Shown: positions 11,633-64,000 of the stretch, piece by piece
Position numbering within the stretch: the first letter of the stretch is position 1
How the letters are laid out: each line of letters begins with the position of its first letter
Assembly (NCBI GenBank): GCA_041650835.1
Contig: JBAZKL010000006.1
Location: forward strand, 1,449-65,448
Source of the DNA: Candidatus Omnitrophota bacterium
GTDB taxonomy: Bacteria > Omnitrophota > Gorgyraeia > Gygaellales > Profunditerraquicolaceae
Direction: 5' to 3'
DNA length: 64,000 nucleotides
Position numbers and translations under genes: made by a program
The notes under the pieces: model-generated
The model's database searches: none
Told to the model about the DNA's origin: nothing
What the model saw: the letters and a program-made list of their open reading frames with translations, nothing else

Positions 11633-11636
11633 GGCT

Positions 11637-12458
11637 TTACATATATCCTAACGACCGTAATTTCTGCATCATATACGCTTTTTCTTTATCCTGGACGCGC
11701 CCGGACCTCTCAGCGACGGCAGTAACGTTGAGCTCGCTCACGATCTTTTCCAGGCTGTCGGCAGATGATGCTACCGGTTGGCAGCAGCATTCACAACCGA
11801 TACTCCGGTAGCGTTGCCCTTTACGCGCAAAATAGAGGCTGACGACGGGAAGTTTTTCCTGTTTGATATACTTCCATATATCGATCTCTCTCCACCCCAG
11901 GAGCGGGTGGACCCTGAAGTGGCTTTCTTTATTTCCCCGGGTCTTATAATGCTCTGACCACAACTCCATGGACTGATTGCCATAATCCCATTTAAACTCT
12001 TTATCGCGCAGTGAAAAACACCTTTCTTTCGCCCTGATCGCGTGCTCATCCCTTCGTATAGCAACCAGTAAAGCCTTTAATCCCCGCGCTTCCACTATCT
12101 GCTTAAGCGCTTCTGTTTTTAAAGCATGACAGCACTCAAACCTGCCCTGCGAGGGAGAGATACGCTTATTGAGCGCTTCATCATTACGCGCGATGAGCAG
12201 GTCCAAACCCCATTTCCGGGCGTAACGCCTGCGAAAATCATAGATCTGTTTAAATTTAAATGTCGTATCGATATGTATGACGGGAATAGGAACCGTGCCG
12301 AGGAAGGCCTTACGCGCCAAATGCACCAATACCGTGGAATCCTTTCCCATGCTCCACAAAAGCGCTAACGCGCCGCGGTATTGCCAATACGCTTCCCTGA
12401 TGATGTAAATACTCCGGCTTTCCAGTTCAGTTAAATATAAGTTCTTTTTCATCAGCAC
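11637..12458 (-). CDS. cysD: Sulfate adenylyltransferase subunit 2 (CysD, PAPS-reductase-like ATP pyrophosphatase fold)
   Basis: PP-loop SMGKDSTV. Conserved CysD blocks (ELESRSIYIIREAY, WEHALLG-like LLGWREIDIWKYI). 273 aa. Confidence 0.85.
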   Translation of the reverse strand: MLMKKNLYLTELESRSIYIIREAYWQYRGALALLWSMGKDSTVLVHLARKAFLGTVPIPVIHIDTTFKFKQIYDFRRRYARKWGLDLLIARNDEALNKRISPSQGRFECCHALKTEALKQIVEARGLKALLVAIRRDEHAIRAKERCFSLRDKEFKWDYGNQSMELWSEHYKTRGNKESHFRVHPLLGWREIDIWKYIKQEKLPVVSLYFARKGQRYRSIGCECCCQPVASSADSLEKIVSELNVTAVAERSGRVQDKEKAYMMQKLRSLGYM

Positions 12459-46104: not shown

Positions 46105-46728
46105 TTACATATCTAACAAGGGATATCTTCTCTGTTCTGATAGCAAGAATTCCTCCTTAGTATGCCAATGTTGTTTCCAAATCGTCATACCCCCATGATG
46201 CTGATCTAAATCCTCCAATTTCCAGTTTTTAATTGTTTTTAAAGCTTTTTCTAAAAGTCTAGAGAAAAATTTTAGCTCACCCGCATATTTAAATCTCCCG
46301 ATCTCCACATACTTACTATGTCTAGTTTCAGTCTCAAATTCATCAACTGACCAAATAACACCTACAATAAACTCATATCTTGTTCCTTGCAAATAATCTA
46401 TATATATTTGAGCTACGCCTCCGATTCTTCTTCGAAAGAAAAGACTACACTTTGGATAACCATAGGGATATTGTTCCAACAAAAAATTATACTTATTTAT
46501 ATAGTCTTGTATTACCGGAGACACTAAAGAGAATACTTCTTTAAAATTATTTATTTCATCATCACTGTAATACAAACCACCTCCTAAATCATTAAATTTC
46601 TTTTTAAGAAAATCTTCTAACTTTAATAATTGCATAATAAAACTAGCAAATCTAACAAATTTAACTTCCAATTTATGAATTAAGACATTTAGTTTGATAG
46701 CAAACCTCCTAATGTTACCGAAAACCAA
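46105..46728 (-). CDS. Putative immunity protein for the Rhs C-terminal toxin
   Basis: Sits directly 3' of the rhs toxin domain and overlaps its stop. The real start is probably the internal Met at ~46635. Markedly AT-rich compared with the neighbouring genes. No homology recognised. Confidence 0.5.
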   Translation of the reverse strand: MVFGNIRRFAIKLNVLIHKLEVKFVRFASFIMQLLKLEDFLKKKFNDLGGGLYYSDDEINNFKEVFSLVSPVIQDYINKYNFLLEQYPYGYPKCSLFFRRRIGGVAQIYIDYLQGTRYEFIVGVIWSVDEFETETRHSKYVEIGRFKYAGELKFFSRLLEKALKTIKNWKLEDLDQHHGGMTIWKQHWHTKEEFLLSEQRRYPLLDM

Positions 46729-49700
46729 GGTGTACCTTCAGGGAATCTAACCTCGGAACCACCGCCTGTTCGATGTGCCCCAAACACACCATATTCCGGT
46801 CTGTTCCAAACCTGTTCGCTCACAGTCCCTAAACTATCAACTGGAATTTTACTTGTATCCACAATTATATTAAAAAAAGCATTAGGAACAGGATCACCCA
46901 CACCATGTGGAGGTAAAGCTAACCTCTGTTGAGCCATTGCTCCAGAAGTATATATGTCTGATGTACCAAAAGAACCAGGTCGCATACCTTTTAAAAGCCC
47001 TAAAGTATCCTTTAGATATCCATAATGACGATATGCTACCAAATTAGATAATTTTCTATTGGGCGGGTGATTTATTCCAATCTGCTTTCTAACCCCGGGG
47101 TATTGATTAAGCACATTTCCAAACCCAGGGGGCGCTCCCAGTATGTCGCCTATTTGCCCAGCAGACATTCCATGCGCGATATTTTGCATACCGCTTAAAT
47201 AACTACCTTCAATTAACCCACCTGATACTGCACCGATGCCGAAACCAATAATTCCATGCTTAATTGCGTCACTAAAACTAGCGCCGCCACCTAATGCTCC
47301 AAAAAATCCACTCCCCAAGCCTATACACCCAAATTCAGTTGCCCCTATAAGAAAACCACCTCCGAAGGTAAAAGAATTTGTACCCAAAACGCCCACAAGT
47401 TGACCAGCTAAGGCAGTTCCAACAAAACCGCCCAAAACAGATCCGACTGCAGAAGCAGCGGCAATAGCCATCGGATTCCAATTACTTGTATAAATACTAC
47501 TTGCCAACAAAAGCGGAAAACCAAGAGGCAAACCAGCCCAATTTAACCCACCACTTGTAAGAAAACTTCCTACTTTGTCAAATATCTTCTTAAACCAGCT
47601 TTTAAATCCTAAACCACTTGGATCAACTAAATTTATAGGATTATTCCGGCAATACGCGTATCGATTCAAGTCCTGAGGATCATAGGGTCTCTGTATGGTA
47701 GGATCCGATGTCACAAACCGCCCGATCTCCGGGTCATAGTAGCGCGCGCCGTAGTAATATAACCCCGTATTATCCAGTTCCTTGCCCGTGAACTTATGCT
47801 TTACAACGTCACTGCCGGTAATCTGGGCGATCGTCCCATAGGGCGTATATTCCACAGACTCAATCTGCGCGCCTGACTGGTTGGTGATCACATTACTTGA
47901 TCCCAAATGGTCGCTATGATAGTAATTACGGTTTACGGTACCCGGTGTCCGGTTATCGTAATCCACACTACAGACCCGATTGGCTCCCGCGAAAATGTGC
48001 TTGGTGACCTTATTATTAGAATCTGTCTCAAAGAGCGAGCCTATATAGGTAGTTGTCCCGGAAGCACTCTCCTTCTTTACCCTGCCCCCGTCTCCATCAT
48101 AGGCGAATGTAGTTATTATACCGAGTTCATTGGCCTGAATCAAGCGATTCTCTGCGTCATACCCCAAAGTCTTATTCTTACCAACAACCATGTTACCGTT
48201 GGCGTCATACTGATAGGTATATCCTCCCGCGGAGGTTAACGCGTGCGGCCCGGCGCCTGCCCCATAGGTCATCACCCCCAAATCAGACTTATAGGTCATG
48301 TTCCCTATAGAATCATACTGATAATTATACGTCGTATACCCGCCGCCTGTTGCCGGCACGTTCGCGGCACTCATTAAACGGTCTAAATCGTCATACGTAT
48401 AGGTGCGAATATTTGATCTTAAATTATCGGTAAGTGTCGTAACATTCCCGTTTTTGTCAAAAAGGTAATTCAGGTCCTGCAGGGTTGACGCGCCTTGCGT
48501 CAAGATACGGCTTAAACGCAGGTCCTGCCCATAGGTGTAGGTGGTTTGCGTACTATTGCCGTATTGTATGGTTTTAATTTGTCCTTTAGCATTATAAGCA
48601 ATATCCTGAACATATACGGCAGCGCCCTGGACTTTTTCCAACAATCCTGAATTAGGGTCATAGCTGTAATTAACCGTTTCTCCGTCGGGATACTTTAAAC
48701 TCGCCAACCTGTCTAATGTATCATAGCTGCGCTCAACCGCATAAGAAACACCCTCCACGATTTTTATCGATTTTATCTCCCTGCCCAACTTATCATAGAA
48801 AAACTCAGTGGAACCTGATCGATCAACTATTTTCGACAACCTGCCTACGCAATTATCTTTACCTGCCTCATCATAAATATATTGCGCCAGCGGCTCAACC
48901 TCCCCTAAAGAACGCTTAACGCTCAATCGATTCAATTCATCATACTCAAAATCAAGCTCCTGGCCCAAAGCATCAACCTGCCTGATAAGATTCCCCAGCG
49001 CATCGTATTCATAGCTCCAGACGCCCATATCCGGGTCATTCATCTTGAGCTTCCTGCCGGCGGAATCATACCAGATCTGATTGGAATTACCCTTACTGTC
49101 CGTGACCTTTAAAAGATTGCCCTGCAGATCGTATTCATACGTAGTCTTATATACTCCGCCGGAAGTAAATTCCGTGACCTCTAAAACATTACCGTAAACA
49201 TCTTTTTGAGAGCCTTTTCTATGTCCCTGCGCGTCAATTGATTCCGCGTAAAGAGGATTGATATAACTAACAGAAGCTTCCGAGTCTTTAACGGTGCCGG
49301 GAAAATCTGAAATAGTTTTCTTCACCCTGCCTCGAATATCATATTCATAGCGGACATAAGAGATTTGCGCGACATCTTCATCAACATAATGCGCCAGCGA
49401 TTCTCGATCAACTAACCCGCGGTTATTAAAATAGACTTCTGAAGAGACCTGCCGGGCTGAGGTGCCGTCTTCACCGGCGGATAAACTCTTGTATTTGCGC
49501 CCCAACCCGTCAATATACTCGGTCTTGGAGAAACCCGCTTGCGTGGTGACTTTGGTATTAAAATCGGGATAGGCGCAGGTAGTAGTAACCTCGCCAAAAG
49601 CATCAGTAGACTGAAGCAGCCTGCCCAAAGAATCAAATGTAGTTGAAGAAGTATTACCATTCGCGTCAGTGACTGACTTTACCGCGCCGAACTTCGGCTC

Positions 49701-52700
49701 ATAAACGTAGGTGATCTCATGGCCCAGCGCGTTACTGACCTTACGCGGAAAGGCGTAAAAATCTGTCTCATATTCTGTAACAACCGACCTTCCTAAAGCA
49801 TTGGTCGAACTCGTTAAATTCCCAAAAGTATCATACGAATAATGCGCGTCTACCTGAGTGTAACTTGAGGTAAGCGGATCAAAGATAAAAACGGTTTCCA
49901 CAGATACATTCCCTTTAGCATCATATTCGAATGTTTTCCTGTTAACAGTATTCGCATCTTTGTCCTTTAACGTAGTCTCCAAGGGCCGGTTAAAACCGTC
50001 TTCATAAGCTTGCGTATAACTTATAGAGGTTGATCTCTCATCGCCGGTTACCGCGCTATTGCCCTCGGTGACTTCCGAGAGAAGATTACCGATACTATCA
50101 TAGGTAAAAGTATTTCGTGTCGAAAGCGATGCGGCATTCTCCTCCCAAACAGTAGTTACGGTCTCTTGTAACGCCGGGAACCCCAAAACACGTTCAGAGG
50201 GGCCGGCCTTACGGACCTCATAGGTATTCACTGTCTGGCTGATCTGACGCGCGTTACCGTCATAGGCAACGATCTTCTCGATCTGCCCTTTTAAGGCTCC
50301 GTCCTGACCGGCCTTCCCCTGAAGGAAATAGGTCTCGGTATAGTTACCTGTTACCGAGTCCGTTACCCTGACCTTATTGAATCCGCGGAACTCACGCTCT
50401 GCGGCGTCAAAATACCCGCCGGAATATAGAAAGGCCTGGGTGTAGCTTTCCTGTGTTTGGCTGGCGGGTAACGTATCTATTGAACTAATGGAGCAGGCAA
50501 CGTAAACCGGGAACGGCAGCGATGTATTTTCCGACTGCGCGGCGTAAGTATAATTGACTTGCGTCTTTGCGCCTATACCGTTATCAATTTCGGTCAGGAA
50601 ATCAGCGGGCTTATTATTTGAAAGCTGCACATTCCAGCGGTTTATCCCGATCCCATCTCGGTCAAAAACCGCCGCATCAGTTGCGCCATCCCCGTTAAAG
50701 TCCCCGCTGGAAGCAGATTCAATATCACTAAAGCCAAAGCCAAGCCATAAGCCTTTATTAATGAATTGAGTGCCGTTGGAGATGGCGTAATTCCAGGTGC
50801 AACTTGGCTTGTCCCAATAACCGATATCAGTTAAACCGTCATTGTTGAGATCTGAAACAAAAGCGTCCTGATTAACGGCAAAGCCGTTGATCCAGCTTGA
50901 GCCGTCAACAAAACCTTTCGTATTGGAAAACGCTACTTTAAATTCACCGCTTGATTTATTGAACAAACACAGGTCAGATAAAGAATCTCCGTTAAAATCC
51001 CCCGACATGGCAACAAAGCCTGTGCCTAAACCGCTCACCCAACTGCCAAAAGCGCCAAAACCAGAACCATTGCCCAGGGCAACGCGCACCTCCCCTGCAT
51101 CTTTATTATAGACGGCAAAATCAGTGTATTTGTCCGCGTTAAAATTTCCGGTAAAGGGCTGCCAGGAATACGAAGCATTAGAAAAGGTAAGCCAAGTAGA
51201 TGGTGTAGAGAAACTTGTCCCCGAGGAAAGCGCGATCTTTAATTCACCGGTCGTATTATTATAAATACCGCCATCGCTTAATCCGTCGCCGTTAAACTCC
51301 CCTCCTATCGGCCACCAGTCGCGGGAGGTCCCGAAACCGGACAACCAATCAACCGCGTTATTGAACACTCCCGCTTCTGAGATACAGATCGCCCATTTAC
51401 CGGTATCGGAATTATGCACTCCCAGGTCAGTAAGACTGTCACCGTTAAAATCACCCATGATCGGATTGATCGAATCACGGTTGGCGTTGGGGTCAACGAC
51501 ATCAACTCCCTTAGAAGCGTTTACCGTCAAACTTCCGGGATCAGTGACTATAGATGAGATCGTATGATTTCCAGCGGCGGAAAAAGTCACCGTAGTATTA
51601 ATACTGCCGAAAACAGCGCCTGTTGAGATAGAAACTCCATCTTTTTTAAGCGAATACGTCAGAGCGTCATTATCAGGATCAGTAGCATTAAGGGTTACTG
51701 AGATCACCTCATTAAGATTCACCGTATATTTATCCAGTATGAGGCTCACCTGGGGAGCCCGATTGGTATTATTAACAATAATGCGTACGTTCTGCCGGAC
51801 AGTATCAATTCCGTCGGAAGCAGTAACTCCGGCAGTATAGGTCCCGGCATCAGAATAACCGGTCAACCATTTGCCTGAATTGTCTAAAGGAACAGAGTAA
51901 TAATACGTGATCGCTTCATTATCCGCATCAGTCGCGACAGGGGCCACCGTTACCAGCGCTCCTTCACTAACGGTAATATCAGATAAGGCATTCAACACCG
52001 GCGGGTGGTTGACATTACGGATAGTTACTTTAACCTCCTGGCTGTCTTTGCGTCCGGTGGAATCAGTCGCGGAAACTGTCACCGTATAGATCCCGGAGCT
52101 CATAAAATTTGTCTGCCATTGGCCGGAGGCGTTAAGCGGAGCGGTAAAACTATAGGTTATACTGTGGCCGTCGGCGTCTGTGGCATGGGGACTGATACTT
52201 ACCAGCTGGTTCTCATTGGCCGTAACATCAGGAATAAAATCCAGGACAGGAGGATTCCCTATTCCCTCAACCAATAAGGTAACTTCATTGCTTTGAGTAA
52301 GATTACCATCGGTATCTTGAGCGCAAAAAACAGCTTTCTCGACGCCGCACCAGGCAGGATCCTGGGAAAAACTTACTGCCCGCGTAGCAGGATCGATAGA
52401 TATATTTATCGCGCTGTTGCCGCTTACCGAATAACTGAGAGCTAAACCGTCGGGACTAAAGAAATAATCATCCAGGTCAAATAAATCATTTTTTGATTCG
52501 TTAGACTTCCACCCTTGATTGTCAATGACCTGCGTTTGCAGCGGCGGGTTGGATACCACAGCCGGAACAAACCCTGAATTCAGGATATATGACTGGCTAA
52601 CAGCTCTACCGGCGCAAGATTGACCGACGGCATCCTGCCGGATCTTCGCGCTCACGCTTAGGCGGCTCGTTCCGCCAGCCGGAAAAGCAGCGGTATTTAA

Positions 52701-52832
52701 TCTATAGCTGGCGCTTACGGCAGTATAAGCAAACGCATCGCGGACCGGGCCAAAGGCCACCAGATGCAAGACAATGAGCATGCCTGAACAAAGCCGATAA
52801 ATTATACTGTTAGTTTTAAAATAGTTTTTCAT
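46689..52832 (-). CDS. RHS/YD-repeat polymorphic toxin: signal peptide, cadherin/Ig-like domains, FG-GAP beta-propeller, RHS shell, RHS core (PxxxxDPxGL) and 306-aa C-terminal toxin domain
   Basis: 2047 aa. FG-GAP repeats (GDFNGDSLTDLGV, GEFNGDGLSDGGIY, ...). TcB-like junction ADFLTEIDNGIGAKTQVNYTYAAQ. Dozens of YD repeats. Core ...YYYGARYYDPEIGRFVTSDP...YAYCRNNPINLVDPSGL. The C-terminal domain has a glycine-zipper region. Confidence 0.95.
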   Translation of the reverse strand: MKNYFKTNSIIYRLCSGMLIVLHLVAFGPVRDAFAYTAVSASYRLNTAAFPAGGTSRLSVSAKIRQDAVGQSCAGRAVSQSYILNSGFVPAVVSNPPLQTQVIDNQGWKSNESKNDLFDLDDYFFSPDGLALSYSVSGNSAINISIDPATRAVSFSQDPAWCGVEKAVFCAQDTDGNLTQSNEVTLLVEGIGNPPVLDFIPDVTANENQLVSISPHATDADGHSITYSFTAPLNASGQWQTNFMSSGIYTVTVSATDSTGRKDSQEVKVTIRNVNHPPVLNALSDITVSEGALVTVAPVATDADNEAITYYYSVPLDNSGKWLTGYSDAGTYTAGVTASDGIDTVRQNVRIIVNNTNRAPQVSLILDKYTVNLNEVISVTLNATDPDNDALTYSLKKDGVSISTGAVFGSINTTVTFSAAGNHTISSIVTDPGSLTVNASKGVDVVDPNANRDSINPIMGDFNGDSLTDLGVHNSDTGKWAICISEAGVFNNAVDWLSGFGTSRDWWPIGGEFNGDGLSDGGIYNNTTGELKIALSSGTSFSTPSTWLTFSNASYSWQPFTGNFNADKYTDFAVYNKDAGEVRVALGNGSGFGAFGSWVSGLGTGFVAMSGDFNGDSLSDLCLFNKSSGEFKVAFSNTKGFVDGSSWINGFAVNQDAFVSDLNNDGLTDIGYWDKPSCTWNYAISNGTQFINKGLWLGFGFSDIESASSGDFNGDGATDAAVFDRDGIGINRWNVQLSNNKPADFLTEIDNGIGAKTQVNYTYAAQSENTSLPFPVYVACSISSIDTLPASQTQESYTQAFLYSGGYFDAAEREFRGFNKVRVTDSVTGNYTETYFLQGKAGQDGALKGQIEKIVAYDGNARQISQTVNTYEVRKAGPSERVLGFPALQETVTTVWEENAASLSTRNTFTYDSIGNLLSEVTEGNSAVTGDERSTSISYTQAYEDGFNRPLETTLKDKDANTVNRKTFEYDAKGNVSVETVFIFDPLTSSYTQVDAHYSYDTFGNLTSSTNALGRSVVTEYETDFYAFPRKVSNALGHEITYVYEPKFGAVKSVTDANGNTSSTTFDSLGRLLQSTDAFGEVTTTCAYPDFNTKVTTQAGFSKTEYIDGLGRKYKSLSAGEDGTSARQVSSEVYFNNRGLVDRESLAHYVDEDVAQISYVRYEYDIRGRVKKTISDFPGTVKDSEASVSYINPLYAESIDAQGHRKGSQKDVYGNVLEVTEFTSGGVYKTTYEYDLQGNLLKVTDSKGNSNQIWYDSAGRKLKMNDPDMGVWSYEYDALGNLIRQVDALGQELDFEYDELNRLSVKRSLGEVEPLAQYIYDEAGKDNCVGRLSKIVDRSGSTEFFYDKLGREIKSIKIVEGVSYAVERSYDTLDRLASLKYPDGETVNYSYDPNSGLLEKVQGAAVYVQDIAYNAKGQIKTIQYGNSTQTTYTYGQDLRLSRILTQGASTLQDLNYLFDKNGNVTTLTDNLRSNIRTYTYDDLDRLMSAANVPATGGGYTTYNYQYDSIGNMTYKSDLGVMTYGAGAGPHALTSAGGYTYQYDANGNMVVGKNKTLGYDAENRLIQANELGIITTFAYDGDGGRVKKESASGTTTYIGSLFETDSNNKVTKHIFAGANRVCSVDYDNRTPGTVNRNYYHSDHLGSSNVITNQSGAQIESVEYTPYGTIAQITGSDVVKHKFTGKELDNTGLYYYGARYYDPEIGRFVTSDPTIQRPYDPQDLNRYAYCRNNPINLVDPSGLGFKSWFKKIFDKVGSFLTSGGLNWAGLPLGFPLLLASSIYTSNWNPMAIAAASAVGSVLGGFVGTALAGQLVGVLGTNSFTFGGGFLIGATEFGCIGLGSGFFGALGGGASFSDAIKHGIIGFGIGAVSGGLIEGSYLSGMQNIAHGMSAGQIGDILGAPPGFGNVLNQYPGVRKQIGINHPPNRKLSNLVAYRHYGYLKDTLGLLKGMRPGSFGTSDIYTSGAMAQQRLALPPHGVGDPVPNAFFNIIVDTSKIPVDSLGTVSEQVWNRPEYGVFGAHRTGGGSEVRFPEGTPWFSVTLGGLLSN

Positions 52833-53605
52833 AATTTCATGATAAAAGCTATCGCGTAATAAGGAGGCAAGTTATTGTGAGCTACGCCCCCGCCGGTTGC
52901 CGCTGTTTGTCCTCCAACAGTATTCATGGCGCTGGCAATTTTTGATTCGCTACCCGGATAATCGGAACCGGAGAGATAAACCCCGTGAGTATGCGCCGGC
53001 AGCTCCGCGACGGTCAATATATGAGCCGCTTCCCCGCCGGTTTGCAACAGGACACCGCTCACATTCGATTTCACAAGCCCGGCAGAATCCTGCCTGCCGC
53101 CCACCACGAATTTATCCCTGAGATCCGGCGTGCCATTCGTTCCGTCACAAAGCACCCAGCCCTCCGGGATCGCCGCGATCGTCCCCGACCACATTGCAAC
53201 AACTCCCCGCGGGAGACTGTCGGTATGCTTCGAACGCATCGCGTACGCGGCGCTTGACATCCGCTGACGAGGAGCCATGACTTCGCTGCCAACTTTGATC
53301 TCCAGGAAATACGCCATATCAAAAGCAAGCCCAAGATCCGTTACCGACCCTAAAAGCACATTAAAGATCCCCTTCTGCACTACTACAGCAGGCTGTATCT
53401 CTTCCCAAAGCAGATTCCCGGCAGTTTCAGCGTCATATATTCTAAAAGTAAGGCTATATGTCCCTTCCAACGGCTGTCCGCTGGTATCAGTCAGGCGGCC
53501 CTGATAATTGATCAGTTCCGGCACCGCCGCATAAATAGCGGCGGACGGACAGACGACAGCATAGAGTAGTAGTATTGAAAGTAATATTAACTTTAAGTTT
53601 TTCAT
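52829..53605 (-). CDS. Phage tail-collar domain protein (MdpB / microcystin-dependent protein family), secreted
   Basis: Signal peptide. VAMWSGTIAAIPEGWVLCDGTNGTPDLRDKFVVGG matches the tail-collar consensus. C-terminus ends NNLPPYYAIAFIMKL. Stop overlaps the rhs start (ATGA). Confidence 0.8.
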   Translation of the reverse strand: MKNLKLILLSILLLYAVVCPSAAIYAAVPELINYQGRLTDTSGQPLEGTYSLTFRIYDAETAGNLLWEEIQPAVVVQKGIFNVLLGSVTDLGLAFDMAYFLEIKVGSEVMAPRQRMSSAAYAMRSKHTDSLPRGVVAMWSGTIAAIPEGWVLCDGTNGTPDLRDKFVVGGRQDSAGLVKSNVSGVLLQTGGEAAHILTVAELPAHTHGVYLSGSDYPGSESKIASAMNTVGGQTAATGGGVAHNNLPPYYAIAFIMKL

Positions 53606-53686
53606 AGTACCCTTCTCCTTGTTTTGGAATTTAACAATATTCGTAATATTTAATATTCTTCATATAACACTATTCCACGCTGCACG

Positions 53687-56600
53687 CTACTTTGCTTTCT
53701 GATAGCTGAAACGCTGCGCCGGCATAGTCTTGCCGTCAGAACCGCTCTGCGTTACAGAGCTCAATAACGAACGGTTGGTATCCTGGCTATAGCTATATTC
53801 CAACTCATAGCGCCAAACCAGCTCAGAATCAACTTTGACCTGTATCTCTTTTAAGCGCTTTGCGGTAGCGACTTTCGCGCCGCTCAAATAACTTGAGGGA
53901 ATATCTTCACGCGATTCCAAAAAGAATTCAACGCTGTTCGTCGGAGTAACACCCGCGTCATTACCGGTATAATCTATACGGCTTAAATATATTTTCCCCT
54001 GGTCTTTTGAATAATTGAACTCGATATAATTTCCGTTTGTATCGCTGGCCTTTGTTACATGCCAACTGAATGTGCCCGCACTTGCCCCCTCTTTAGCGTC
54101 CTGCGACTGCCCGAATCGAAGGACACTCCCATCTTTTCCCACTACCCTCCAGGAATCATCCGTCTCTTTAAAATATTTTGCAAATCCTGATTCTATCTTT
54201 GCCTGATAGAGGTTATCGATCAACCAGATTAACTCAGTCGTACCGCTGTCAGTGACCAGATAAAAACTATCCTGGTTATCTATATACGTAGGAGGGCCGA
54301 GCTTAGTTGAACGCACGATATATCCGGGGTTCAAACTATAGCCTAATCCAACCCAGGAATTAGCATTTGAAGAGCGATACGAAAGCGCTAACCCCGGCTG
54401 TAACCCTTTTCTTCCCGGCGGCACCGTAATAGGGATCGCGTGGCCAAAAGCTCCGGTGAACATATCCGGTAAAGGGATATTCACTCCCCCGCCGATAGGA
54501 GTGCCTTGAGAAGTAAGATTCTTCAATGCCGCGTAGGTAGAAAAATGAAAAAGACTGAAATTCAGGGTATATCCATCTGTCGGTACTATCGAAACCTGCC
54601 CTTGAGGAAGTATTTTCCCCTGTACCGCGTCATACAACCCTAACTCCACGCGCGTGCCGGGGATCTCCGCCTGGTATAAGGTATAGATCAACCGGACAGG
54701 CTTATAAAACACCAATCCATAAGGCTTACATTCCACCGCGCTTAAAAGCGAACTATTATCAGGCGCGCTTTGCTCTAATATTTCTTTACTCACATTCAAG
54801 ACTTTGATCTGCTTGGTCTCTGTCAAAGCTCCCTCAGGGATAATGATCTTGATCTTTCCGTCAGCAGAGCTAACCTCGCCGCCTGCCGGGCCGATCGCTT
54901 TGCCTAAGTATAAATAAACGGTTACTGAACTCGACGCTAAATTACCGGCAGCATCCCGGGAAGTCTTAGTTAAAACGTTTCCTCCCTCCTGAAGAAGAGA
55001 GCGTGTCTCAGAAAACGCGGCACCATCCACGGTTCCGGTTAATAAAATTTGAGCTTCTTCGGCCACGCTCCCCTCTTGAGGAGAAGTTATTTTGATAACG
55101 GGCGCTGTCTTATCGATGGTAAAATTTATCGTCTGCGTCGATTTATTCCCCGCTTTATCCTCAGCGGTAAGAGTAGCTGCGTGGGCCTTTTCAATTACAT
55201 AGGGAGAATCATCTCCGGCCACGGTAATTTGGCTGGGTGGAGTAAAATTATCAGTCAAGGCATAAGACAGAGTAACACTCGAATTGGCCGGGCTTAAAAC
55301 GGAATTAATGCTGATCGCCGGCGGCGTGGTATCCAGAAGGATAGTATCAGAAAAGCACGACGACCAATTCCCTGCCGCGTCCTTATATCTTACATATACG
55401 GTCTTTGTGCCCTCACCTGCCGGTAGTGCCCATGATTTGCTTACCGCGTAGGGTTCAGCAGCCGACCAGGCCGAGTTATCATTAGAAAACTGCATCTGGG
55501 AGATACCGCTGCCGCCGCTGTTATCCTGCGCGGATAAACTTAAAGTAACCGCAGTAAACCTTGTATACTGATCATCATTATTTATCTTGATCGTCCCGGC
55601 AGGAGGGGTGATATCGGTATAAATGGTCCATGTCCCTTTATGAACCAGGCTCAGCGTTGCTCCCGCGTCATCCTGGGCAGAAAGATAAAGATTCTTTGCG
55701 CCGCCGGAGGCTGTTTTAAAAATTACGTTCCAATTGATACTCAGGGTATTTCCTGAACCGGAAGCAGTTGTTTTCGAGCAATCAAGCTTAGCGTAAGAAT
55801 TTTCAAGGACTTTCGAACTACCAGGGGCATATCCGCCTGACCAGATTGAATTACTCGTGTTTCGCAGATAGAGTTTATTCGTATTTTGATTATAGTGGAT
55901 GTAAAAACAATTGGTCAGGGAAGTTGACGTGTTGCTCAAAAAATAAGCGCTATTGATATTCTGCCAACCATCCGGGTCTATGAATGAACTTGAGAAATTA
56001 ACCGAGTTATTGATGATAGAGCTTCCGGAAACAGGAGAAATAGTGCCGATTTGAGGGCTGCTATTCGCAATTGTCCAAGTACCTTTTTTAACATAACCGG
56101 AAGAAGCCCCGAGAGTGTCATAAACACAAGTATATGTGTTCTTTACACCGGTAAACGGTTTTTTTACTACTATTGACCAGGTAACTGAAAAATTCACTCC
56201 GCTTCGCGTCACGGACGTCAAAGCGCAGTTGAGCTTCGCGAATGAATTCTCGATGATGTTACTTGCGCCGGGAGCATACCCGCCTATCCAGGCAGTATTA
56301 TCATCATTACGTACATAAAGCTTATTAGTTGTTTGATTGTAATAAAAAGAAGGACAATTTAAACCAGAACTAGTAGTATTAATTAAAAAATATACAAAAT
56401 CAATATTCACGCAACCATCAGCGTCGGAGAAAGAAGCGGTAAACGTTTGCGCCGTTTCAACAGTCCCGGTGCCTGCAGCGGGAGTGATCAAACCCGTGAC
56501 GGGTATATACGTAACAGTGCATGTCCCTTTCAAGGTCCATCCTACCGAAATGCCGGACTGTTCATTCACATAAAGATAAGCATTATATTTATTTCCTAAA

Positions 56601-57094
56601 CAAACGGTTTTAAAGGTCACGCTATATTTAACCGTCAAATTGCTCCCTGAACCAGCCTTTCTGGAATTGGCGCAATTAAGCGTAACCTTGGAATTTGAGA
56701 TCGTATTCGGCGAGCCGGGAGCATATCCGCCCAACCATGTTGTATTAGCATCATCTCGCAAATACAATAAGTTGGTGATTTGATTATAATAAATACACGC
56801 GGAATTTGTAAGAGTTGCTGAAGTAGTGCCGATCAAAAGGTAGGCTTCTCTGATAGTTGCCCATCCGGAAGCATCGCTATAAACACAGGTAAAAGTTTTT
56901 GCTATGTTTGGCGCTGATGCACCGCTTGAAGGAGAGATCGAAACATTGAAAGGCGTGGCAGCGAACGCGCTGGCTAAAAAAAGCCCCCAAACAAGGCCTA
57001 AGCCCATCAGGGCTGTTTTCTTCTGGAAGATCATTTTATGCAGTTTGGTCATAGACTTCTTTGTCTTAAACCGTGGATAATTGGAAGGTGCCAC
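53687..57094 (-). CDS. Secreted protein with 3-4 tandem ~130-aa repeats of an unrecognised domain, a putative Ig-like segment, and a C-terminal SpvB/TcB-N-terminal-like domain
   Basis: Signal peptide after a short N-terminal extension. Repeats share ...Y.NQ.TN.LYLR......W.GGYAPGS......S.AKL.C..... From ~aa 870, IPLPDMFTGAFGHAIPITVPPGRKGLQPGLALSYRSSNANSWVGLGYSLNPGYIVRSTKLGPPTY matches the SpvB N-terminal motif. The following YTGNDAGVTPTNSVEFFLESREDIPSSYLSGAKVATAKRLKEIQV matches the TcB region preceding the propeller. Confidence 0.8.
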   Translation of the reverse strand: MAPSNYPRFKTKKSMTKLHKMIFQKKTALMGLGLVWGLFLASAFAATPFNVSISPSSGASAPNIAKTFTCVYSDASGWATIREAYLLIGTTSATLTNSACIYYNQITNLLYLRDDANTTWLGGYAPGSPNTISNSKVTLNCANSRKAGSGSNLTVKYSVTFKTVCLGNKYNAYLYVNEQSGISVGWTLKGTCTVTYIPVTGLITPAAGTGTVETAQTFTASFSDADGCVNIDFVYFLINTTSSGLNCPSFYYNQTTNKLYVRNDDNTAWIGGYAPGASNIIENSFAKLNCALTSVTRSGVNFSVTWSIVVKKPFTGVKNTYTCVYDTLGASSGYVKKGTWTIANSSPQIGTISPVSGSSIINNSVNFSSSFIDPDGWQNINSAYFLSNTSTSLTNCFYIHYNQNTNKLYLRNTSNSIWSGGYAPGSSKVLENSYAKLDCSKTTASGSGNTLSINWNVIFKTASGGAKNLYLSAQDDAGATLSLVHKGTWTIYTDITPPAGTIKINNDDQYTRFTAVTLSLSAQDNSGGSGISQMQFSNDNSAWSAAEPYAVSKSWALPAGEGTKTVYVRYKDAAGNWSSCFSDTILLDTTPPAISINSVLSPANSSVTLSYALTDNFTPPSQITVAGDDSPYVIEKAHAATLTAEDKAGNKSTQTINFTIDKTAPVIKITSPQEGSVAEEAQILLTGTVDGAAFSETRSLLQEGGNVLTKTSRDAAGNLASSSVTVYLYLGKAIGPAGGEVSSADGKIKIIIPEGALTETKQIKVLNVSKEILEQSAPDNSSLLSAVECKPYGLVFYKPVRLIYTLYQAEIPGTRVELGLYDAVQGKILPQGQVSIVPTDGYTLNFSLFHFSTYAALKNLTSQGTPIGGGVNIPLPDMFTGAFGHAIPITVPPGRKGLQPGLALSYRSSNANSWVGLGYSLNPGYIVRSTKLGPPTYIDNQDSFYLVTDSGTTELIWLIDNLYQAKIESGFAKYFKETDDSWRVVGKDGSVLRFGQSQDAKEGASAGTFSWHVTKASDTNGNYIEFNYSKDQGKIYLSRIDYTGNDAGVTPTNSVEFFLESREDIPSSYLSGAKVATAKRLKEIQVKVDSELVWRYELEYSYSQDTNRSLLSSVTQSGSDGKTMPAQRFSYQKAK

Positions 57095-57412: not shown

Positions 57413-57991
57413 TTAGTAATTCTCCGCTAACTGCTCGTAGAACGATTGCGGATGTTTGCAGGCGGGACATTCCTTAGGAGCGTCCTTACCTTCAAAGACA
57501 AAGCCGCAATTAATGCAGTGCCATTTAACAGGAGCTTTTTTCTGGAAAACCTCCTTATTGGCGATATTATTAATGAACTTGCGGTAACGAGCCTCATGGA
57601 ATTTCTCGACCTTTGAGATCTGTTCAAATGACTTCGCCACATCCTCAAAACCCTCATCATGCGCGGTCTTGGCAAAATCAGCGTAAAGCGTGGTCCATTC
57701 CATGTTCTCACCGGCTGCCGCGGCTTCAAGATTGCTTTTAGTATCCTTGATCATCCCTGCCGGATAGGACGCGGTGATCTCAACGTCGCCTCCTTCAAGA
57801 TATTTAAAGAATACCTTGGCATGCTCTTTTTCATTTTCCGCGGTTTCAACGAAAATATTAGCTATCTGCTCCATGCCTTCTTTTCTTGCTGCCGAGGCGA
57901 AATAGGTGTACCTGTTACGCGCCTGCGATTCACCGGCGAATGCCGCGAGCAAATTTCTCTCAGTTTTAGTCCCTTTTATTGATTTAGCCAT
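57413..57991 (-). CDS. rbr: Rubrerythrin (diiron ferritin-like domain + C-terminal rubredoxin-like CxxC...CxxC)
   Basis: ERNLLAAFAGESQARNRYTYFA...ENEKEHAKVF ferritin-like E/ExxH motifs. C-terminus CINCGFVFEG...CPACKHP. Confidence 0.95.
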   Translation of the reverse strand: MAKSIKGTKTERNLLAAFAGESQARNRYTYFASAARKEGMEQIANIFVETAENEKEHAKVFFKYLEGGDVEITASYPAGMIKDTKSNLEAAAAGENMEWTTLYADFAKTAHDEGFEDVAKSFEQISKVEKFHEARYRKFINNIANKEVFQKKAPVKWHCINCGFVFEGKDAPKECPACKHPQSFYEQLAENY

Positions 57992-58007
57992 TCTCCCCCC
58001 TTTTTTC

Positions 58008-58133
58008 TTAATCTTCCATTTTTATCATTTCTTTCCCGCAACAAACTAAAGTCCCGCCTCCGACCCTGGTAACGATCACTTCATTGCCGCAAACACTACA
58101 ATGGAACTTTTCACCGTTCTTTTTAACAGCCAT
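58008..58133 (-). CDS. Desulforedoxin-like small protein (41 aa), not in the ORF track
   Basis: Translating the minus strand gives MAVKKNGEKFHCSVCGNEVIVTRVGGGTLVCCGKEMIKMED. The CxxC...CC spacing and GGGTLVCCG block match the desulforedoxin / desulfoferrodoxin N-terminal domain. GGAGG lies 6 nt upstream of the ATG. Stop is 17 nt before the rbr start. Confidence 0.7.
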   Translation of the reverse strand: MAVKKNGEKFHCSVCGNEVIVTRVGGGTLVCCGKEMIKMED

Positions 58134-58270
58134 AGCATCCCCTCCTTGTTCATTCATTTTAAAACATTACATTAAGAAGTATAAAGGTTAAATTCTAAAG
58201 AACAAAGAAAATTAAAAGTTTAAAGGTCAAATTTTAAATTTAAACTTAATCCTTGAGACTTCCTTTGTTA

Positions 58271-58352: not shown

Positions 58353-59003
58353 TCAAACAACCTCCAGCTCAAGCTGTTTGATCAATTCATTGGCTTCTTT
58401 CAAAAGCGGCGCCGACAACATTTTCGCGCTCTCCAGCTCTTCCTTAAGCGACCTTAAGGTGGTTAAAAAGCGCTTGATCGTTGTCGTCCTGCGCTGTTCA
58501 CGGGCCTCTTCAGGCGCTAATTCGTTACGCTGGCGTATCATCGCCGTCAGGTCTTTCTTGACCTCGCCTGCGTCTTTGCCTTTTTGAAAGACATTTTTTT
58601 TCAAATCTGCGTAATCGCCGTCATCAAGCACTTTTTTTTCTTTTGCCATCCGCAGGACATTGATCGTGTCGTAGCCGGGCATGGCGGCCGCCTCCGTCGT
58701 CTCAGCGTAATCTTTCTTCAAATACGCCGGCTCTTCCTTCTCAAGGAAATAGTATGAACGCAGGAGCTTCATCGCGGTATCTTTCTTAACGCCTATTTCC
58801 TTGGCAGTATAAATATCAAACGTGCTATACCCCCACTGCTTATATAATTTATCTTTCCAAACGCAATACAACGCCTGGCCCAAATCGACCCAGGAGGTCT
58901 TAAAGCTTTTCACGTTCTCCAATATCCGGTGCCGCAAAGGGTCTTTCTCTGTCTCTTCCATCTTATGTTCAAGGTCTTCCATTGATCTTGTTTTTAACGT
59001 CAT
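58353..59003 (-). CDS. Hypothetical protein, largely helical/coiled-coil
   Basis: 216-aa ORF, same orientation as its neighbours, charged helical composition. No motif recognised. Confidence 0.65.
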   Translation of the reverse strand: MTLKTRSMEDLEHKMEETEKDPLRHRILENVKSFKTSWVDLGQALYCVWKDKLYKQWGYSTFDIYTAKEIGVKKDTAMKLLRSYYFLEKEEPAYLKKDYAETTEAAAMPGYDTINVLRMAKEKKVLDDGDYADLKKNVFQKGKDAGEVKKDLTAMIRQRNELAPEEAREQRRTTTIKRFLTTLRSLKEELESAKMLSAPLLKEANELIKQLELEVV

Positions 59004-59868: not shown

Positions 59869-62800
59869 TTATTCTTCTTCGCTTTTCGAGTTACTCTTTT
59901 CCGCGAGGATCTTTTGCGCTATTTCAGCGGGGACTTGGTCGTATTTCTCAAAACGCATCGAGGCGTTCGCCCGGCCGCTGCTTAAGGAACGAAAAGCCGT
60001 GGCATAGCCGAACATCTCAGCCAAAGGCGCTTCCGCGGTAATTATCTTACGGTTCCCCTTGGTTTCCATATTCAGTATCTTTCCCCGGCGGGAACAGATA
60101 TTGCCCACGATACTATTCACGAATTCTTCAGGGGTTGAAACCTCAACCGCCATGCACGGCTCAAGCAGCACAGGCTCTGCCCCCATAAAAACGCTCTTAA
60201 AGCAGCCCCGCGCGGCAAGCTTAAATGCCAGCTCCGAAGAATCAACATCATGATACGACCCGTCAGTCAGGTCAACTTTAACATCAACCACCGGATAACC
60301 GGCATAGGGGCCTTTTTTCATGGTCTCGATCACGCCCTTTTCAACCGCGGGAATAAATGATTTCGGGATAGACCCGCCCTTAATACTATTGATGAACTCA
60401 AAGCCCGCGCCCGGTTCGTTAGGGGAGATCGTAAACGCCACATGGCCGTACTGCCCGCGGCCGCCTGACTGCTTGATATGCTTATACTCGTCGCTGGAGG
60501 TGCCCGTGATAGTTTCACGGTAGGCGACTTTCGGCTGTCCGACGATAACATCAACATCAAACTCGTGCTTCAAGCGGTCAACAATGATCTCTAAATGCAA
60601 TTCTCCCATCCCGGTAAGGATAGTTTCTTTGGTTTCCTCATCAGACTGCACGATAAAAGTCGGGTCCTCTTCGGTCAATTTTGCCAATCCCTTGCCGAGT
60701 TTATCCTGGTCAGCGCGGCTTTTCGGGGTAATGCTCAACGACACAACCGGAACCGGGAACTCTATAGCTTCTAAAAGTATCCGGTCATCCGGATAACATA
60801 ACGTATCCCCGGTGATGGTCGAGGTCAGGCCGATAGCCGCTACAATATCGCCGGCAAACGCGTAATCGACGTTTTCCCGCTGATTGGCATGCATGCGCAC
60901 GATCCTTCCAATACGTTCTTTTTTATTCTTTGTGGCATTAAGGACATATGTCCCGGTCTCCAGGACTCCCGAATAGATCCGCAAATAAACCAGCTTGCCC
61001 ATATGAGGGTCTGCCTGCACTTTAAAGGCAAGCGCGGTAAAAGGCTGCCGATAATTAGCCAGGCGGGTAAGCACTTTTTTCTCATCTTGAGGGTCGTGCC
61101 CATTGATCGCCGGCAAATCATCAGGCGAAGGCAAATACAGATTGACCGTATCAAGCAGCTTCTGCACGCCTTTATTCTTATAGGCGGAGCCGCAAAGCAC
61201 AGGCACCATTTTATTGGTAATAGTGCCGCGGCGGATCACCGTATGCAATTCCTCTTCGGTAATTGACGCCTCTGACTCCAAATATTTCTTGGTAAGCAGT
61301 TCATCGAACGCCGCTACTTTTTCCACAAGCCGGTGGCGGTACTGCTCGGCTTTTTCCAGGTAGTCTTCAGGGATACCTTCAACGGTATACTCTTTGCCTT
61401 GAGAATCTTCTTCATATATATACGCTTTCATTTCGATCAGGTCAACGACTCCCCGGAAGGTATCCTCATTTCCGATGGGAATGACCAGGGGGATAACATT
61501 CCCGCCCAGCTCCGTCTCAATACTCTTAACGATGCCGTAGAAATCAGCTCCCACGCGGTCCATTTTATTGATAAAAGCTATCTTCGGGACGTTATACTTA
61601 TCAGACTGATGCCATACCGTCTCCGACTGCGGCTCCACCCCGCCAACCGCGCAAAAAACCGCGATCGCCCCGTCAAGCACCCTGAGGCTTCGCTCTACTT
61701 CAACGGTAAAATCAACGTGGCCGGGAGTATCGATAATAGTGATCCGGTTATCTTTCCAGAAACAGGTCGTTGCCGCGGCAGTAATGGTAATGCCGCGTTC
61801 CTGCTCCTGCTTCATCCAATCCATCTGGGCTTTACCTTCATGGACTTCCCCGATCTTATGCGTGCGCCCGGTATAAAAAAGAATGCGTTCAGTCAAAGTA
61901 GTTTTACCGGCGTCGATATGCGCCATGATGCCTATATTACGGATATTCCTTAGGTCTATCTTAGGCACAGCCGCCGCTTCAGCCTTAGGCTTGACCACCT
62001 GTTCTTCACGCGTCTCTTCAACAACTTCCGGTTCTTCCGCGGTATCAGCAGGAAGCGAAGCTTCCGGGATATCCAGCGGCGCCGGTACATCTAAGGAAAC
62101 AGCTTCTGGTTCAGGGACAGGCACTTCTTGAGGAGGTTGGGTATCAACCGGTTGCTCAACTGAAACTTCTTGCTGCGGCAATGGTTCAGGTAGCGCACCT
62201 AACGGCTCTTCTTTACTTTCTGAAGGAAGAGCTGCCTGCTCAGTTGAGGCTTCGCCTTGAAGCGGGATGTCAGCCGAGGGAGCCTCACCCAACAGCTTTT
62301 CTTCCGAAGGAGCAAGACCGGCATCAAATTCCGCGGGTACTTCAAACTGCTTTCGTTCAGCTAACTGTCGCTTGAGCTGCACCAGCTCTTCAACGAGCGC
62401 GCGGAGCTTCTCTTCTTTAGCCTCTAATTCTTTTTCCAACGCGGAGAATTCTTCGTTGAGCTTATTAAAATCTGTTTTAGGGACCCACTCGTTAACTTGC
62501 TCTTTCTTCTTATACTCGGCGACCTTTATCGAAGCCGCCTTTACTTCCAGCTCATAGCCTTCGACCAAATGCCTGTATTTTTCTATCTGTTCGGCATGCT
62601 CCTTAAGCTGTTTTTCCTGAGTCAAGGTTTTCTCGGTAAGCTCCCTGACCTGCTTATTCAGATCGACGGACTTAGCGAATTCTTCCTGCAGCTCTTTTTC
62701 TTTCTCATTGAATTTATTCTTTACCTCAAAGGCCTCTTCCTTGGCCTTATTGAGCATCTCTTCGCTCTTAGCGACCCAATCCTGCCGGCGCGCCAATTCT

Positions 62801-63075
62801 GTTTTAAATTCTGATTCTTTTTTCTTTATCGCCTCCAACTCAACGCGCGCGGCCTCAAGTTCGGCTTTCACCGAATCATTCTCTTTTTCTAGAATGGCGG
62901 TTTGTGTTTCCAGGCGCTGTATCTTTTGTTCCCGGTCAAGCGTTTCCTGCTCCCGGGCAGTCTTGCCTCCTTTGGGTTGACGAGGCGAAGCCCCTTGAGA
63001 ATCTTCAGGAGAGACCAGCGCGAAGACGACCAGGCCGATCCCCACGACCAACATTCCCCCGAGCAATAAGATCAT
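59869..63075 (-). CDS. Elongation factor G paralog fused to an N-terminal transmembrane helix, ~240-aa coiled coil and Pro/Glu-rich linker
   Basis: C-terminal ~695 aa are canonical EF-G: G1 [10 protein letters not shown]3 DTPGHVDF, G4 NKMD, domains II-V. N-terminal aa 1-22 hydrophobic ([21 protein letters not shown]). aa 40-280 K/E-rich heptads. aa 280-365 EPxxP acidic linker. All in one uninterrupted frame. Confidence 0.85.
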
Positions 63076-63132
63076 ATCCGCTCCTCATAGGTAAGAGTAA
63101 AACTAAGCTTTTAAATTTTATAAATACTAAAA

Positions 63133-63160
63133 TATTATATCAGAAAGTATGATTTTGGTA
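63133..63160 (-). promoter_or_regulatory. Candidate sigma70 promoter TTACCA-N16-TATAAT upstream of the EF-G paralog
   Basis: Minus strand TTACCA (plus 63155-63160), 16-nt spacer, TATAAT (plus 63133-63138). GAGGAG Shine-Dalgarno 5 nt before the ATG at 63075. Confidence 0.35.
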
Positions 63161-63167
63161 AGTATTT

Positions 63168-63603: not shown

Positions 63604-64000
63604 TTATTTCCTTTGAGAAAGCTCAAAATCAAGCATCATAAGGCCGTTGCTTGAATCTTTGACCATTTTTAATTTCTCGAGTATCTGTTGAGCGTGGGCT
63701 TCTTCTTCGACCTGCTCGGTAATAAACCAGTCAAGCATCGTTTCAGTCGCGGAATCGTTTTCCTGGCGCGCCGTTTTAAGCACATCGTTGATATACCCGG
63801 TCACCTTGACTTCATGGGAGTATATTTGAGAAAACGCATCAAGGGCTGATTTCCACTGCGAAGGAGGTGCCTCGATCGCGCTTAAAATGACCCTTCCCCC
63901 CCGGTCAAAGAGATAACCATAAAATTTCATGGCATGGCCGTCTTCTTCCTTTGCCTGAAGGCGCACCCAGTGGGCAAACCCCCTGAGATTGACCGATTCA
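63604..64000 (-). CDS. Ferritin (3' portion; N-terminus lies beyond the window end)
   Basis: The frame stays open to the window edge: VNLRGFAHWVRLQAKEEDGHAMKFYGYLFDRGGRVILSAIEAP...DWFITEQVEEEAHAQQ matches ferritin helices B-D, including the ExxH site. Confidence 0.75.
   Translation of the reverse strand, partial: ESVNLRGFAHWVRLQAKEEDGHAMKFYGYLFDRGGRVILSAIEAPPSQWKSALDAFSQIYSHEVKVTGYINDVLKTARQENDSATETMLDWFITEQVEEEAHAQQILEKLKMVKDSSNGLMMLDFELSQRK

Follow-up and report, generated by a model that had tools for sequence, protein, structure and literature searches.

A putative membrane-tethered elongation factor G paralog encoded as a single polypeptide in Omnitrophota

The window analyzed here is a 64,000-nucleotide stretch of contig JBAZKL010000006.1 from a Candidatus Omnitrophota bacterium (assembly GCA_041650835.1). 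The minus strand carries, at positions 59869–63075, one ATG-initiated open reading frame (ORF) of 1068 codons without an internal stop, in which an elongation factor G (EF-G, FusA) moiety follows an extension of about 370 codons. We call this gene the long form or, in anticipation of its predicted anchor, tethered EF-G, and the residue numbers below refer to its 1068-amino acid (aa) product. By our own arithmetic, the probability that about 370 codons upstream of EF-G remain open by chance is approximately (61/64)^370, or 2e-8. Genes for a CoA-binding protein and a ferritin are located on one side, and a gene for an alpha/beta hydrolase on the other. The gene is not located in a str operon (rpsL-rpsG-fusA-tuf), a position that is typical of EF-G genes but not strictly defining.

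The C-terminal part of the product is a complete EF-G. The equivalog model TIGR00484 matched residues 372–1060 with 1040.4 bits (cutoff, 659.4), covering model positions 4–689 of 691. The Pfam families GTP_EFTU, EF-G_D2/GTP_EFTU_D2, EFG_III, EFG_IV, and EFG_C all scored over their cutoffs, giving the five-domain architecture of EF-G with the G domain at residues 377–650, domain II at 678–760, domain III at 773–846, domain IV at 848–966, and domain V at 969–1055. The secondary structure of the moiety in the AlphaFold2 (AF2) model is consistent with this architecture. The moiety aligns with residues 7–688 of Thermus thermophilus EF-G (1DAR) with 871 bits and shows identities of 57.7% to this protein and 57.0% to Escherichia coli EF-G (b3340), whereas the two references are 60.6% identical to each other. 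The P-loop, the DTPGH and NKMD motifs, the catalytic His, the switch regions, the domain IV loop GGRGQYGH, and HDVDSS are intact. In an alignment of the long forms with the shorter EF-Gs of the phylum (discussed below), 238 of 723 columns are at least 98% identical, and the mean column conservation is 0.82 in the crown group of long forms and 0.84 in the short EF-Gs. Models of related GTPases fitted poorly. The EF-G2 and EF-G-like models NF009377 and NF058620 gave 495 bits (cutoff, 890) and 508 bits (cutoff, 1000), tetracycline ribosomal protection proteins (NF012153) gave 388 bits (cutoff, 775), LepA gave 175 bits (cutoff, 534), and RF3 and BipA were far under their cutoffs. The alignments show that the predicted moiety retains every catalytic and ribosome-contacting motif, and in each feature of EF-G that can be examined in a sequence, the catalytic part agrees with the family. 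The product as a whole departs from the usual description of EF-G as a soluble cytoplasmic protein of about 700 aa, being 1068 aa long with a predicted transmembrane (TM) anchor.

The layout of the extension was derived from a 78-sequence alignment, two AlphaFold models, and a periodicity analysis, all of which agree (Table 1). The hydrophobic core positions of the long helix have a periodicity peak at exactly 3.50 residues (power of 2.0 compared with a median of 0.05 and 0.03 at 3.6), with a single a/d register throughout. The helical domain is free of gaps from approximately residue 61 to 230 in the 78 sequences and contains three conserved motifs. Two of these, RR.EWVAKSEE and KEKELQ.EF.KNV.L, are located within the helix of residues 40–196. 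The third includes W197-V-P199, which forms a helix-breaking kink in both AlphaFold models, and Trp197 and Lys200 are invariant even in the stand-alone homologs described below. The linker differs in length among species, with 40–80% alignment gaps, and the whole extension ranges from approximately 281 to 489 aa in the orthologs, always in frame. The window sequence has all the elements by which we define the long form: a TM helix, a fixed-length heptad domain with the motifs R.EWV.K, KEKEL..EF.KNV.L, and SEWVPK.EFNKLNEEY, a variable acidic linker, and EF-G, in one ORF.

Table 1. Features of the tethered EF-G gene and its upstream region (window coordinates).
Feature	Position	Strand	Remarks
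Best sigma-70-like match in the region, TTACCA-16-TATAAT with TG	63134..63161	-	About 60 nt upstream of the ATG; 10/12 positions, consensus match only
Shine-Dalgarno-like GAGGAG	63081..63086	-	5 nt before the ATG at 63075
Start codon and N-terminal TM anchor, aa 1-22 (helix 2-20 in both models)	63010..63075	-	Hydropathy 2.8; predicted N-out/C-in
Variable disordered juxtamembrane segment, about aa 21-39	62959..63009 (aa 23-39)	-	pLDDT (predicted local distance difference test) <50; low conservation, gaps; basic in orthologs
Continuous helix, aa 40-196, 22 unbroken heptads, ~23 nm	62488..62958	-	AF2 pLDDT 95-98; presumed parallel coiled-coil stalk
Most conserved block of the module, SEWVPK.EFNKLNEEY.ELEKELE, aa 195-218	62422..62493	-	Column conservation 0.76-0.82
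Second helix, aa 200-241	62353..62478	-	In both models; heptad-like periodicity 3.55
Disordered acidic Pro-rich linker, aa 242-368	61972..62352	-	pLDDT ~30, without secondary structure; E 20%, P 16%, net charge -24
Internal GTG, codon 370, NCBI start of the 699-aa model (MFA5119290.1)	61966..61968	-	Not conserved
Complete EF-G moiety, aa 369-1068	59872..61971	-	Pfam, TIGR00484, 1DAR alignment, motifs, AF2; dN/dS 0.02-0.08
Stop codon	59869..59871	-	

All 77 orthologs examined lack Lys and Arg before the hydrophobic helix, whereas the 20 residues after it contain 5.5 of them on average and at least 3. Because of this charge pattern and the positive-inside rule, the helix is predicted to be an N-out/C-in signal anchor rather than a cleavable signal peptide, which would place EF-G in the cytoplasm. 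The ratio of nonsynonymous to synonymous substitutions (dN/dS) was calculated pairwise for 15 close pairs and for each segment. It was 0.05–0.14 in the helical domain (residues 47–240), mostly below 0.2 in the TM helix, and 0.2–0.5 in the linker, compared with the low values of the EF-G moiety (Table 1). The short EF-G loci could not be used as a benchmark because their synonymous sites were saturated in all pairs. These ratios show that the whole predicted extension is under purifying selection.

The fused gene is not an artifact of one assembly. The same 1068-aa protein is called on a separate 119.8-kb ENA/JGI contig, and a search with the full-length product returned approximately 118 cluster representatives of about 1000 aa each with 95–100% query coverage. 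This match list was ranked by score and is biased to long forms; we therefore fetched loci by the EF-G moiety alone. The resulting comparative set consists of 80 loci from 80 different species-level Omnitrophota assemblies, with EF-G sequences that are 70–98% identical. When examined at the DNA level, all 80 loci contained the fused gene, each with a frame that begins with a hydrophobic helix and runs without a stop through more than 310 codons before the G1 motif. The fusion was scored directly at 76 of the loci and after rescue at L072 and L013 (a G1 variant; an N-masked stretch), and L015 is truncated at a contig end. At L071, the long gene adjoins a short EF-G gene. L055 (L055:4969-8097) has a fused gene with a frame break, which lies inside the G domain in the DTPGH region and not at the junction; it is either an assembly error or a pseudogenized copy in that metagenome-assembled genome. 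Because two independent assemblies agree and the architecture recurs in 80 species, an assembly chimera, a frameshift, and chance are excluded as explanations of the fused gene. An earlier note on this DNA, made from the sequence without database searches, had described a continuous 1068-codon frame with no stop before EF-G, a complete canonical EF-G with intact G motifs in the last ~695 codons, and an upstream part comprising a TM helix, clearly coding K/E-rich heptads, and a P/E-rich spacer. The homology models, structure predictions, periodicity, and dN/dS values bear out this description. The two findings named in it as able to overturn it, a stop or frameshift on resequencing and a noncoding upstream region in relatives, are answered by the independent contig and by the open, selected frame in the 80 loci.

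The public annotations of this gene disagree. All 1068 aa are included in the gene calls of JGI and ENA, whereas the NCBI entry for the same sequence is an EF-G of only 699 aa from 'Candidatus Omnitrophota bacterium' (MFA5119290.1), and MFA6217593.1 is likewise 699 aa. The truncation of long EF-G genes to approximately 699 aa at NCBI is systematic, with an internal start chosen to fit the EF-G model, and it hides the fused family among RefSeq/GenBank proteins. In 75 of 77 orthologs, an ATG is located directly at the hydrophobic helix, and a Shine-Dalgarno-like motif precedes the long start in 34 of 77 (44%), compared with a background of 18%. Only the long start has a promoter-like site upstream. 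At the position of codon 370, a start codon of any kind occurs in 8 of 78 genes and is accompanied by a Shine-Dalgarno-like motif in 2, and 44 of the 78 genes have no in-frame ATG, GTG, or TTG in the 28 codons before the G domain. The suggestion that the internal GTG could yield free EF-G, also made in the earlier note, is not upheld by this pattern. The junction itself is conserved at the protein level as P-x-P-K-x-x-L-x-K-x-RNIGI. The ortholog comparison shows the upstream ATG to be the predicted start of translation. Because the long start is conserved, the internal start is not, and the upstream codons are under purifying selection, the comparative data indicate that the entire extension is translated in frame as part of EF-G and that the NCBI gene models are truncated.

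The anchor module (the TM helix and helical domain) also occurs without EF-G. An exhaustive phmmer search with residues 1–370 against 1.84 billion representatives returned only 115 proteins, all co-linear from residue 1. Most of them are N-terminal fragments of long EF-Gs on short contigs, but approximately 15 are complete stand-alone proteins of 209–230 aa, which have the TM helix and the conserved Trp motifs and end 20–33 residues past the last Trp motif, without linker or EF-G. They are homologous to residues 1–240 of the long form, with the TM helix, the heptad helix, and both Trp motifs in register. An example is the hypothetical protein A2Y00_00805 of Omnitrophica WOR_2 bacterium GWF2_43_52 (P0363; 35 such clusters). 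One stand-alone gene on a 224-kb contig, whose product is annotated as a hypothetical protein of an Omnitrophica WOR_2 bacterium, has a genuine stop codon followed by aroA, with no EF-G nearby, and its product is 31% identical to the window extension over 130 gap-free residues (E = 7e-10). For the locus scan, the alignment of 15 stand-alone sequences was too divergent, and a 6-sequence subset gave 4 loci. Searches of the anchor module against Pfam and NCBIfam (E ≤ 1) gave at most sub-threshold generic coiled-coil matches, none of them close to a family cutoff, and a Foldseek search against the PDB gave nothing beyond sub-threshold generic coiled-coil likeness. A possible synteny of SpoU methylase genes between a fused locus (L067) and a stand-alone locus (L087) was dismissed because the methylases are only 27% identical. 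By sequence, the module represents a family with no described counterpart, made up of small coiled-coil proteins of the membrane. Because it exists alone in Omnitrophota, tethered EF-G is best explained as a fusion of fusA to a pre-existing small protein of this family. The Trp motifs and the autonomy of the module suggest that it may bind a membrane-associated partner, in which case the fusion would bring EF-G to a particular site instead of the membrane as a whole.

Ordinary EF-G genes are also found in this phylum. A short EF-G of 698–704 aa is encoded approximately 1.6 kb upstream of the long gene at L067, on the closed 1.52-Mb chromosome CP070797.1, and at L071, and these short and long copies are 72% identical to each other. 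Used as a query, the short copy matched a large family of Omnitrophota EF-Gs of 689–704 aa, for which JGI and ENA call the same length. Four genomes hold both copies: CP070797.1, JAHISK, CAZAYU, and CAZVRU. In CAZAYU, the long gene (L076) is on contig 1 (CAZAYU010000001.1) and the short gene (P0240) is on contig 7 (CAZAYU010000007.1, L093:3001-5085), and in CAZVRU, a short and then a long gene stand in tandem approximately 330 bp apart. The deep-branching lineages (L067:1248-8094; L092:3001-8094) have short and long genes in tandem on the same strand, 0.3–1.6 kb apart. This arrangement fits an origin by tandem duplication and is lost in the crown group. The short Omnitrophota EF-Gs that we examined are also outside the str operon, and their loci (L093, L094, L098–L101) share a recurrent neighborhood, with genes for a peptidyl-prolyl isomerase, in some cases a BaxI-family protein, and an NYN-domain protein immediately upstream. 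Canonical S12-S7-EF-G-EF-Tu operons are described in some closed Omnitrophota chromosomes (preprint 10.64898/2026.06.07.730766).

A neighbor-joining tree of 201 EF-G moieties was rooted with the E. coli and T. thermophilus proteins. It places 77 of 78 long forms in one clade (bootstrap 64), which is sister to a clade of all short forms plus L076 (bootstrap 86), with the outgroups outside (100). The sister-clade topology implies a duplication older than the crown group of long forms, which comprises 75 loci including the window; the window sequence is located beside L001 and L002. The long clade evolves slightly faster, with a distance to the outgroups of 0.636 compared with 0.592 for the short forms. 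Nine columns are fixed differently in long and short forms (H213R, E229K, I369A, S452T, E537S, Y538F, G618N, Q641K, and Y669A in T. thermophilus numbering), and the window carries RKATSFNKA, the long-clade consensus at all nine positions. The long forms of the four genomes with both copies are deep-branching and have an intermediate residue signature. The moiety of L076 is 81.9% identical to the short EF-G of its own genome, whereas such pairs are about 70–72% identical elsewhere. Because its anchor module sits on a short-type moiety so similar to its own short copy, L076 points to gene conversion between the two paralogs or to another fusion event.

The search for a second EF-G, which the earlier note had proposed as a check, gave a divided answer: a short EF-G accompanies the long form in the four genomes above, and none was found in the 64-kb window, within 10 kb further upstream on the contig, or within 6 kb of any crown-group locus. 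Twelve contig look-ups gave two new co-occurrences, with one falling on the protein of the window and nine in assemblies outside the long-form sample. No contig other than CP070797.1 was common to the long-form and short-form match lists, and in the NCBI protein accession series the short forms belong to other deposit series than the long forms. Because the long forms make up a separate clade and both copies are found in four genomes, the long form is probably a paralog of the ordinary ~698-aa EF-G and not 'the' EF-G of these bacteria.

Tethered EF-G resembles several known systems in part. It shares with canonical bacterial EF-G the five domains, 57–58% identity, and intact motifs, but it adds a 368-residue TM anchor, coiled coil, and disordered linker, is encoded outside the operon that holds fusA in E. 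coli, and belongs to a clade separate from the ordinary Omnitrophota EF-Gs. Second EF-G paralogs are known, such as EF-G2 of Thermus and Mycobacterium (NF009377), and the EF-G1 and EF-G2 of spirochaetes and mitochondria split translocation and recycling. Like these, tethered EF-G is an extra copy beside a standard one in the same genome, and by analogy the coexisting copies suggest a division of labor. Unlike EF-G2, it is of the EF-G1 type according to the model scores given above, and its specialization would lie in an added localization module rather than in a divergent catalytic body. FtsY, the receptor GTPase of the signal recognition particle, has a SIMIBI-class NG domain and an acidic N-terminal A domain or a TM anchor. 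It is similar to tethered EF-G as a membrane-tethered GTPase with an acidic N-terminal region, but it does not belong to the translational GTPases and lacks a long coiled-coil stalk, and homology is not expected. LepA/EF4 is an EF-G-like factor reported to associate peripherally with the E. coli membrane. It is likewise a ribosomal GTPase of the EF-G family with a membrane-associated pool, but it lacks a TM helix or stalk, and the LepA model is far from matching tethered EF-G. RNase Y and TolA/TonB consist of a TM anchor, a long helical or Pro-rich spacer, and a globular domain, and TolA and TonB project into the periplasm. Tethered EF-G has the same plan of one N-terminal TM helix, an extended helical and Pro-rich spacer, and a functional head; the heads of TolA and TonB are periplasmic, whereas the charge distribution predicts a cytoplasmic head for tethered EF-G. 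No homology to any of these proteins was detected, and TolA itself (TIGR02794) was rejected as a relative, since a stand-alone homolog scored 15.7 bits (cutoff, 59.45), the window module gave no TolA match, and the charge pattern is opposite. No description of a membrane-anchored EF-G was found in the literature searched, EF-G is not mentioned in the main Omnitrophota paper (PMC10066038), and an EF-G entry is absent from the proteomics supplements on V. archaeovorus. The architecture appears never to have been described before.

Our preferred interpretation, to which we assign a probability of roughly 0.7, is that the gene encodes a membrane-tethered, single-polypeptide EF-G paralog that is characteristic of Omnitrophota, arose from a duplicated fusA and a small membrane protein, and provides membrane-proximal EF-G activity. 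A duplicated fusA would have been joined through the disordered acidic linker to a small protein with a TM helix and a heptad helix of about 200 residues. Because the heptad register is unbroken, the 22-heptad helix is expected to form a parallel coiled coil, most simply a dimer, that would stand approximately 23–30 nm off the inner membrane (a stalk of about 23 nm plus about 6 nm for the second helix). The protein would then be at least a dimer and carry two EF-G heads, each on a flexible, negatively charged leash of approximately 127 residues with a contour length of up to ~45 nm. EF-G activity, in translocation and/or in recycling assisted by the ribosome recycling factor, would be supplied only within some tens of nanometers of the membrane, which in cells about 200 nm wide would cover much of the cytoplasm, though with a bias toward the membrane. 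Ribosomes that nascent membrane or secreted proteins keep at the membrane would be favored, and the free ~698-aa paralog would serve the bulk cytoplasm where both copies are seen. We infer from the sequence that the function is that of a membrane-proximal, probably dimeric EF-G pool, and the ideas of the earlier note, membrane-localized translation or recycling and a regulatory tether, are plausible in this respect.

Several points weigh against this interpretation. All four genomes with both copies carry deep-branching long forms, and no such case was found in the stretches surveyed around the 75 loci of the crown group, to which the window belongs. The bootstrap value of the long clade is moderate (64), and in L076 the module is joined to an EF-G moiety of the short type. 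Heptad periodicity is the single feature from which we infer the oligomeric state, and EF-G may be released post-translationally by cleavage of the linker.

Four other explanations of the gene were considered. It is unlikely, and less likely than a paralog role, that the crown group including this genome has lost free EF-G so that the tethered protein performs all translocation and recycling. Crown long forms keep all the functional motifs, are about as conserved as the short forms, and have dN/dS values of 0.02–0.08, and the surveyed stretches around the window gene and the crown loci contain no second EF-G. By our own arithmetic, cells of approximately 200 nm (PMC10066038) would be largely reachable by a tether of ~50–70 nm. 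However, all four genomes able to answer the question hold both copies, the duplication appears to predate the crown group, some complete chromosomes have the canonical operon (preprint 10.64898/2026.06.07.730766), and short EF-Gs are abundant across the phylum. If this explanation were true, a dimeric EF-G bolted to the cytoplasmic membrane would do all translocation and recycling, protein synthesis would be confined to a shell of ~50–70 nm, and an essential, universally soluble translation factor would for the first time have become an integral membrane protein.

Still less probable is a membrane-stored pro-form, in which anchoring sequesters EF-G until a protease cuts the P/E-rich linker or the P-x-P-K junction and frees it when needed, as might happen once a starving free-living cell has attached to a host and increases its protein synthesis. 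This view is favored by the length, disorder, and exposure of the linker and by the conservation of a short P-x-P-K motif precisely where linker and EF-G meet; in addition, E. coli LepA/EF4 is reportedly held at the membrane. V. archaeovorus reportedly gains ribosome content on attachment (PMC10066038). Nevertheless, the linker has no conserved cleavage motif and is hypervariable in sequence and length, P-x-P-K may be no more than a part of the EF-G N-terminus, the locus has no dedicated protease gene linked to it, and a conserved helical domain of fixed length with Trp motifs exceeds what a storage anchor would need. We consider it very improbable that the moiety mainly holds or parks ribosomes at the membrane for hibernation or positioning instead of driving translocation. 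The nine differently fixed positions, several of which are in domains IV and V, and the slightly faster evolution of the long clade would be compatible with such an anchor, as would the low ribosome content of free-living V. archaeovorus cells (PMC10066038), but a passive anchor has no need of the catalytic His, P-loop, switch regions, and domain IV tip loops, which are intact and highly conserved. The NCBI model, in which translation begins at the internal GTG and gives only a 699-aa EF-G, with the preceding 369 codons being separate or untranslated and open by chance, is effectively refuted by the comparative data. Two accessions are annotated in this way, and the window GTG has a weak AAGG upstream; the start codon is missing in 70 of 78 orthologs, 44 of them with none nearby, the frame has stayed open through many length changes in 80 genomes under strong purifying selection, and JGI and ENA call the 1068-aa form.

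Other genes of the window were recorded as well. Oxidative-stress genes (rubrerythrin, a small desulfoferrodoxin-N-like protein, and ferritin; 57413–58157 and 63604–63966) flank the long EF-G gene, and a similar rubredoxin/rubrerythrin/desulfoferrodoxin cluster follows a short EF-G gene in another genome (L094:6339-10085); their proximity to both EF-G types may be a coincidence. A 216-aa K/E-rich ORF without a Pfam match (58353–59003, minus strand) is located two genes downstream of the long EF-G gene on the same strand. Three large adjacent genes at 46689–57094 (minus strand) encode proteins of 1135 aa (SpvB), 258 aa, and 2047 aa (TcdB_toxin_midN, RHS repeats, and YD shell). They look like a Tc-toxin/RHS-type toxin complex, which is of note in a phylum suspected of predatory or episymbiotic lifestyles. 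A 413-aa ORF with an EF-Tu-like P-loop, VTGDVDSGKSTLIGRL, adjoins a 273-aa ORF within a long glycosyltransferase/radical-SAM cluster (10391–12458, minus strand); by appearance, the pair is a candidate sulfate adenylyltransferase (CysN/CysD).

Few soluble proteins are as conserved as EF-G, and free diffusion is assumed for translation factors. A phylum-wide version of EF-G that is under strong selection and predicted to be held at the membrane through a rigid stalk and a flexible linker would imply spatial control of elongation or recycling in bacteria. The analysis also brings out a previously undescribed family of small coiled-coil membrane proteins and exposes a systematic annotation error, since the truncation to 699 aa at NCBI hides the fused family. 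In Omnitrophota, a membrane-proximal EF-G paralog may be particularly relevant because the cells are approximately 0.2 μm in diameter (PMC10066038) and 94% of their giant proteins are membrane-anchored or secreted (preprint 10.64898/2026.06.07.730766), and the synthesis of such proteins would tie ribosomes to the membrane for a very long time.

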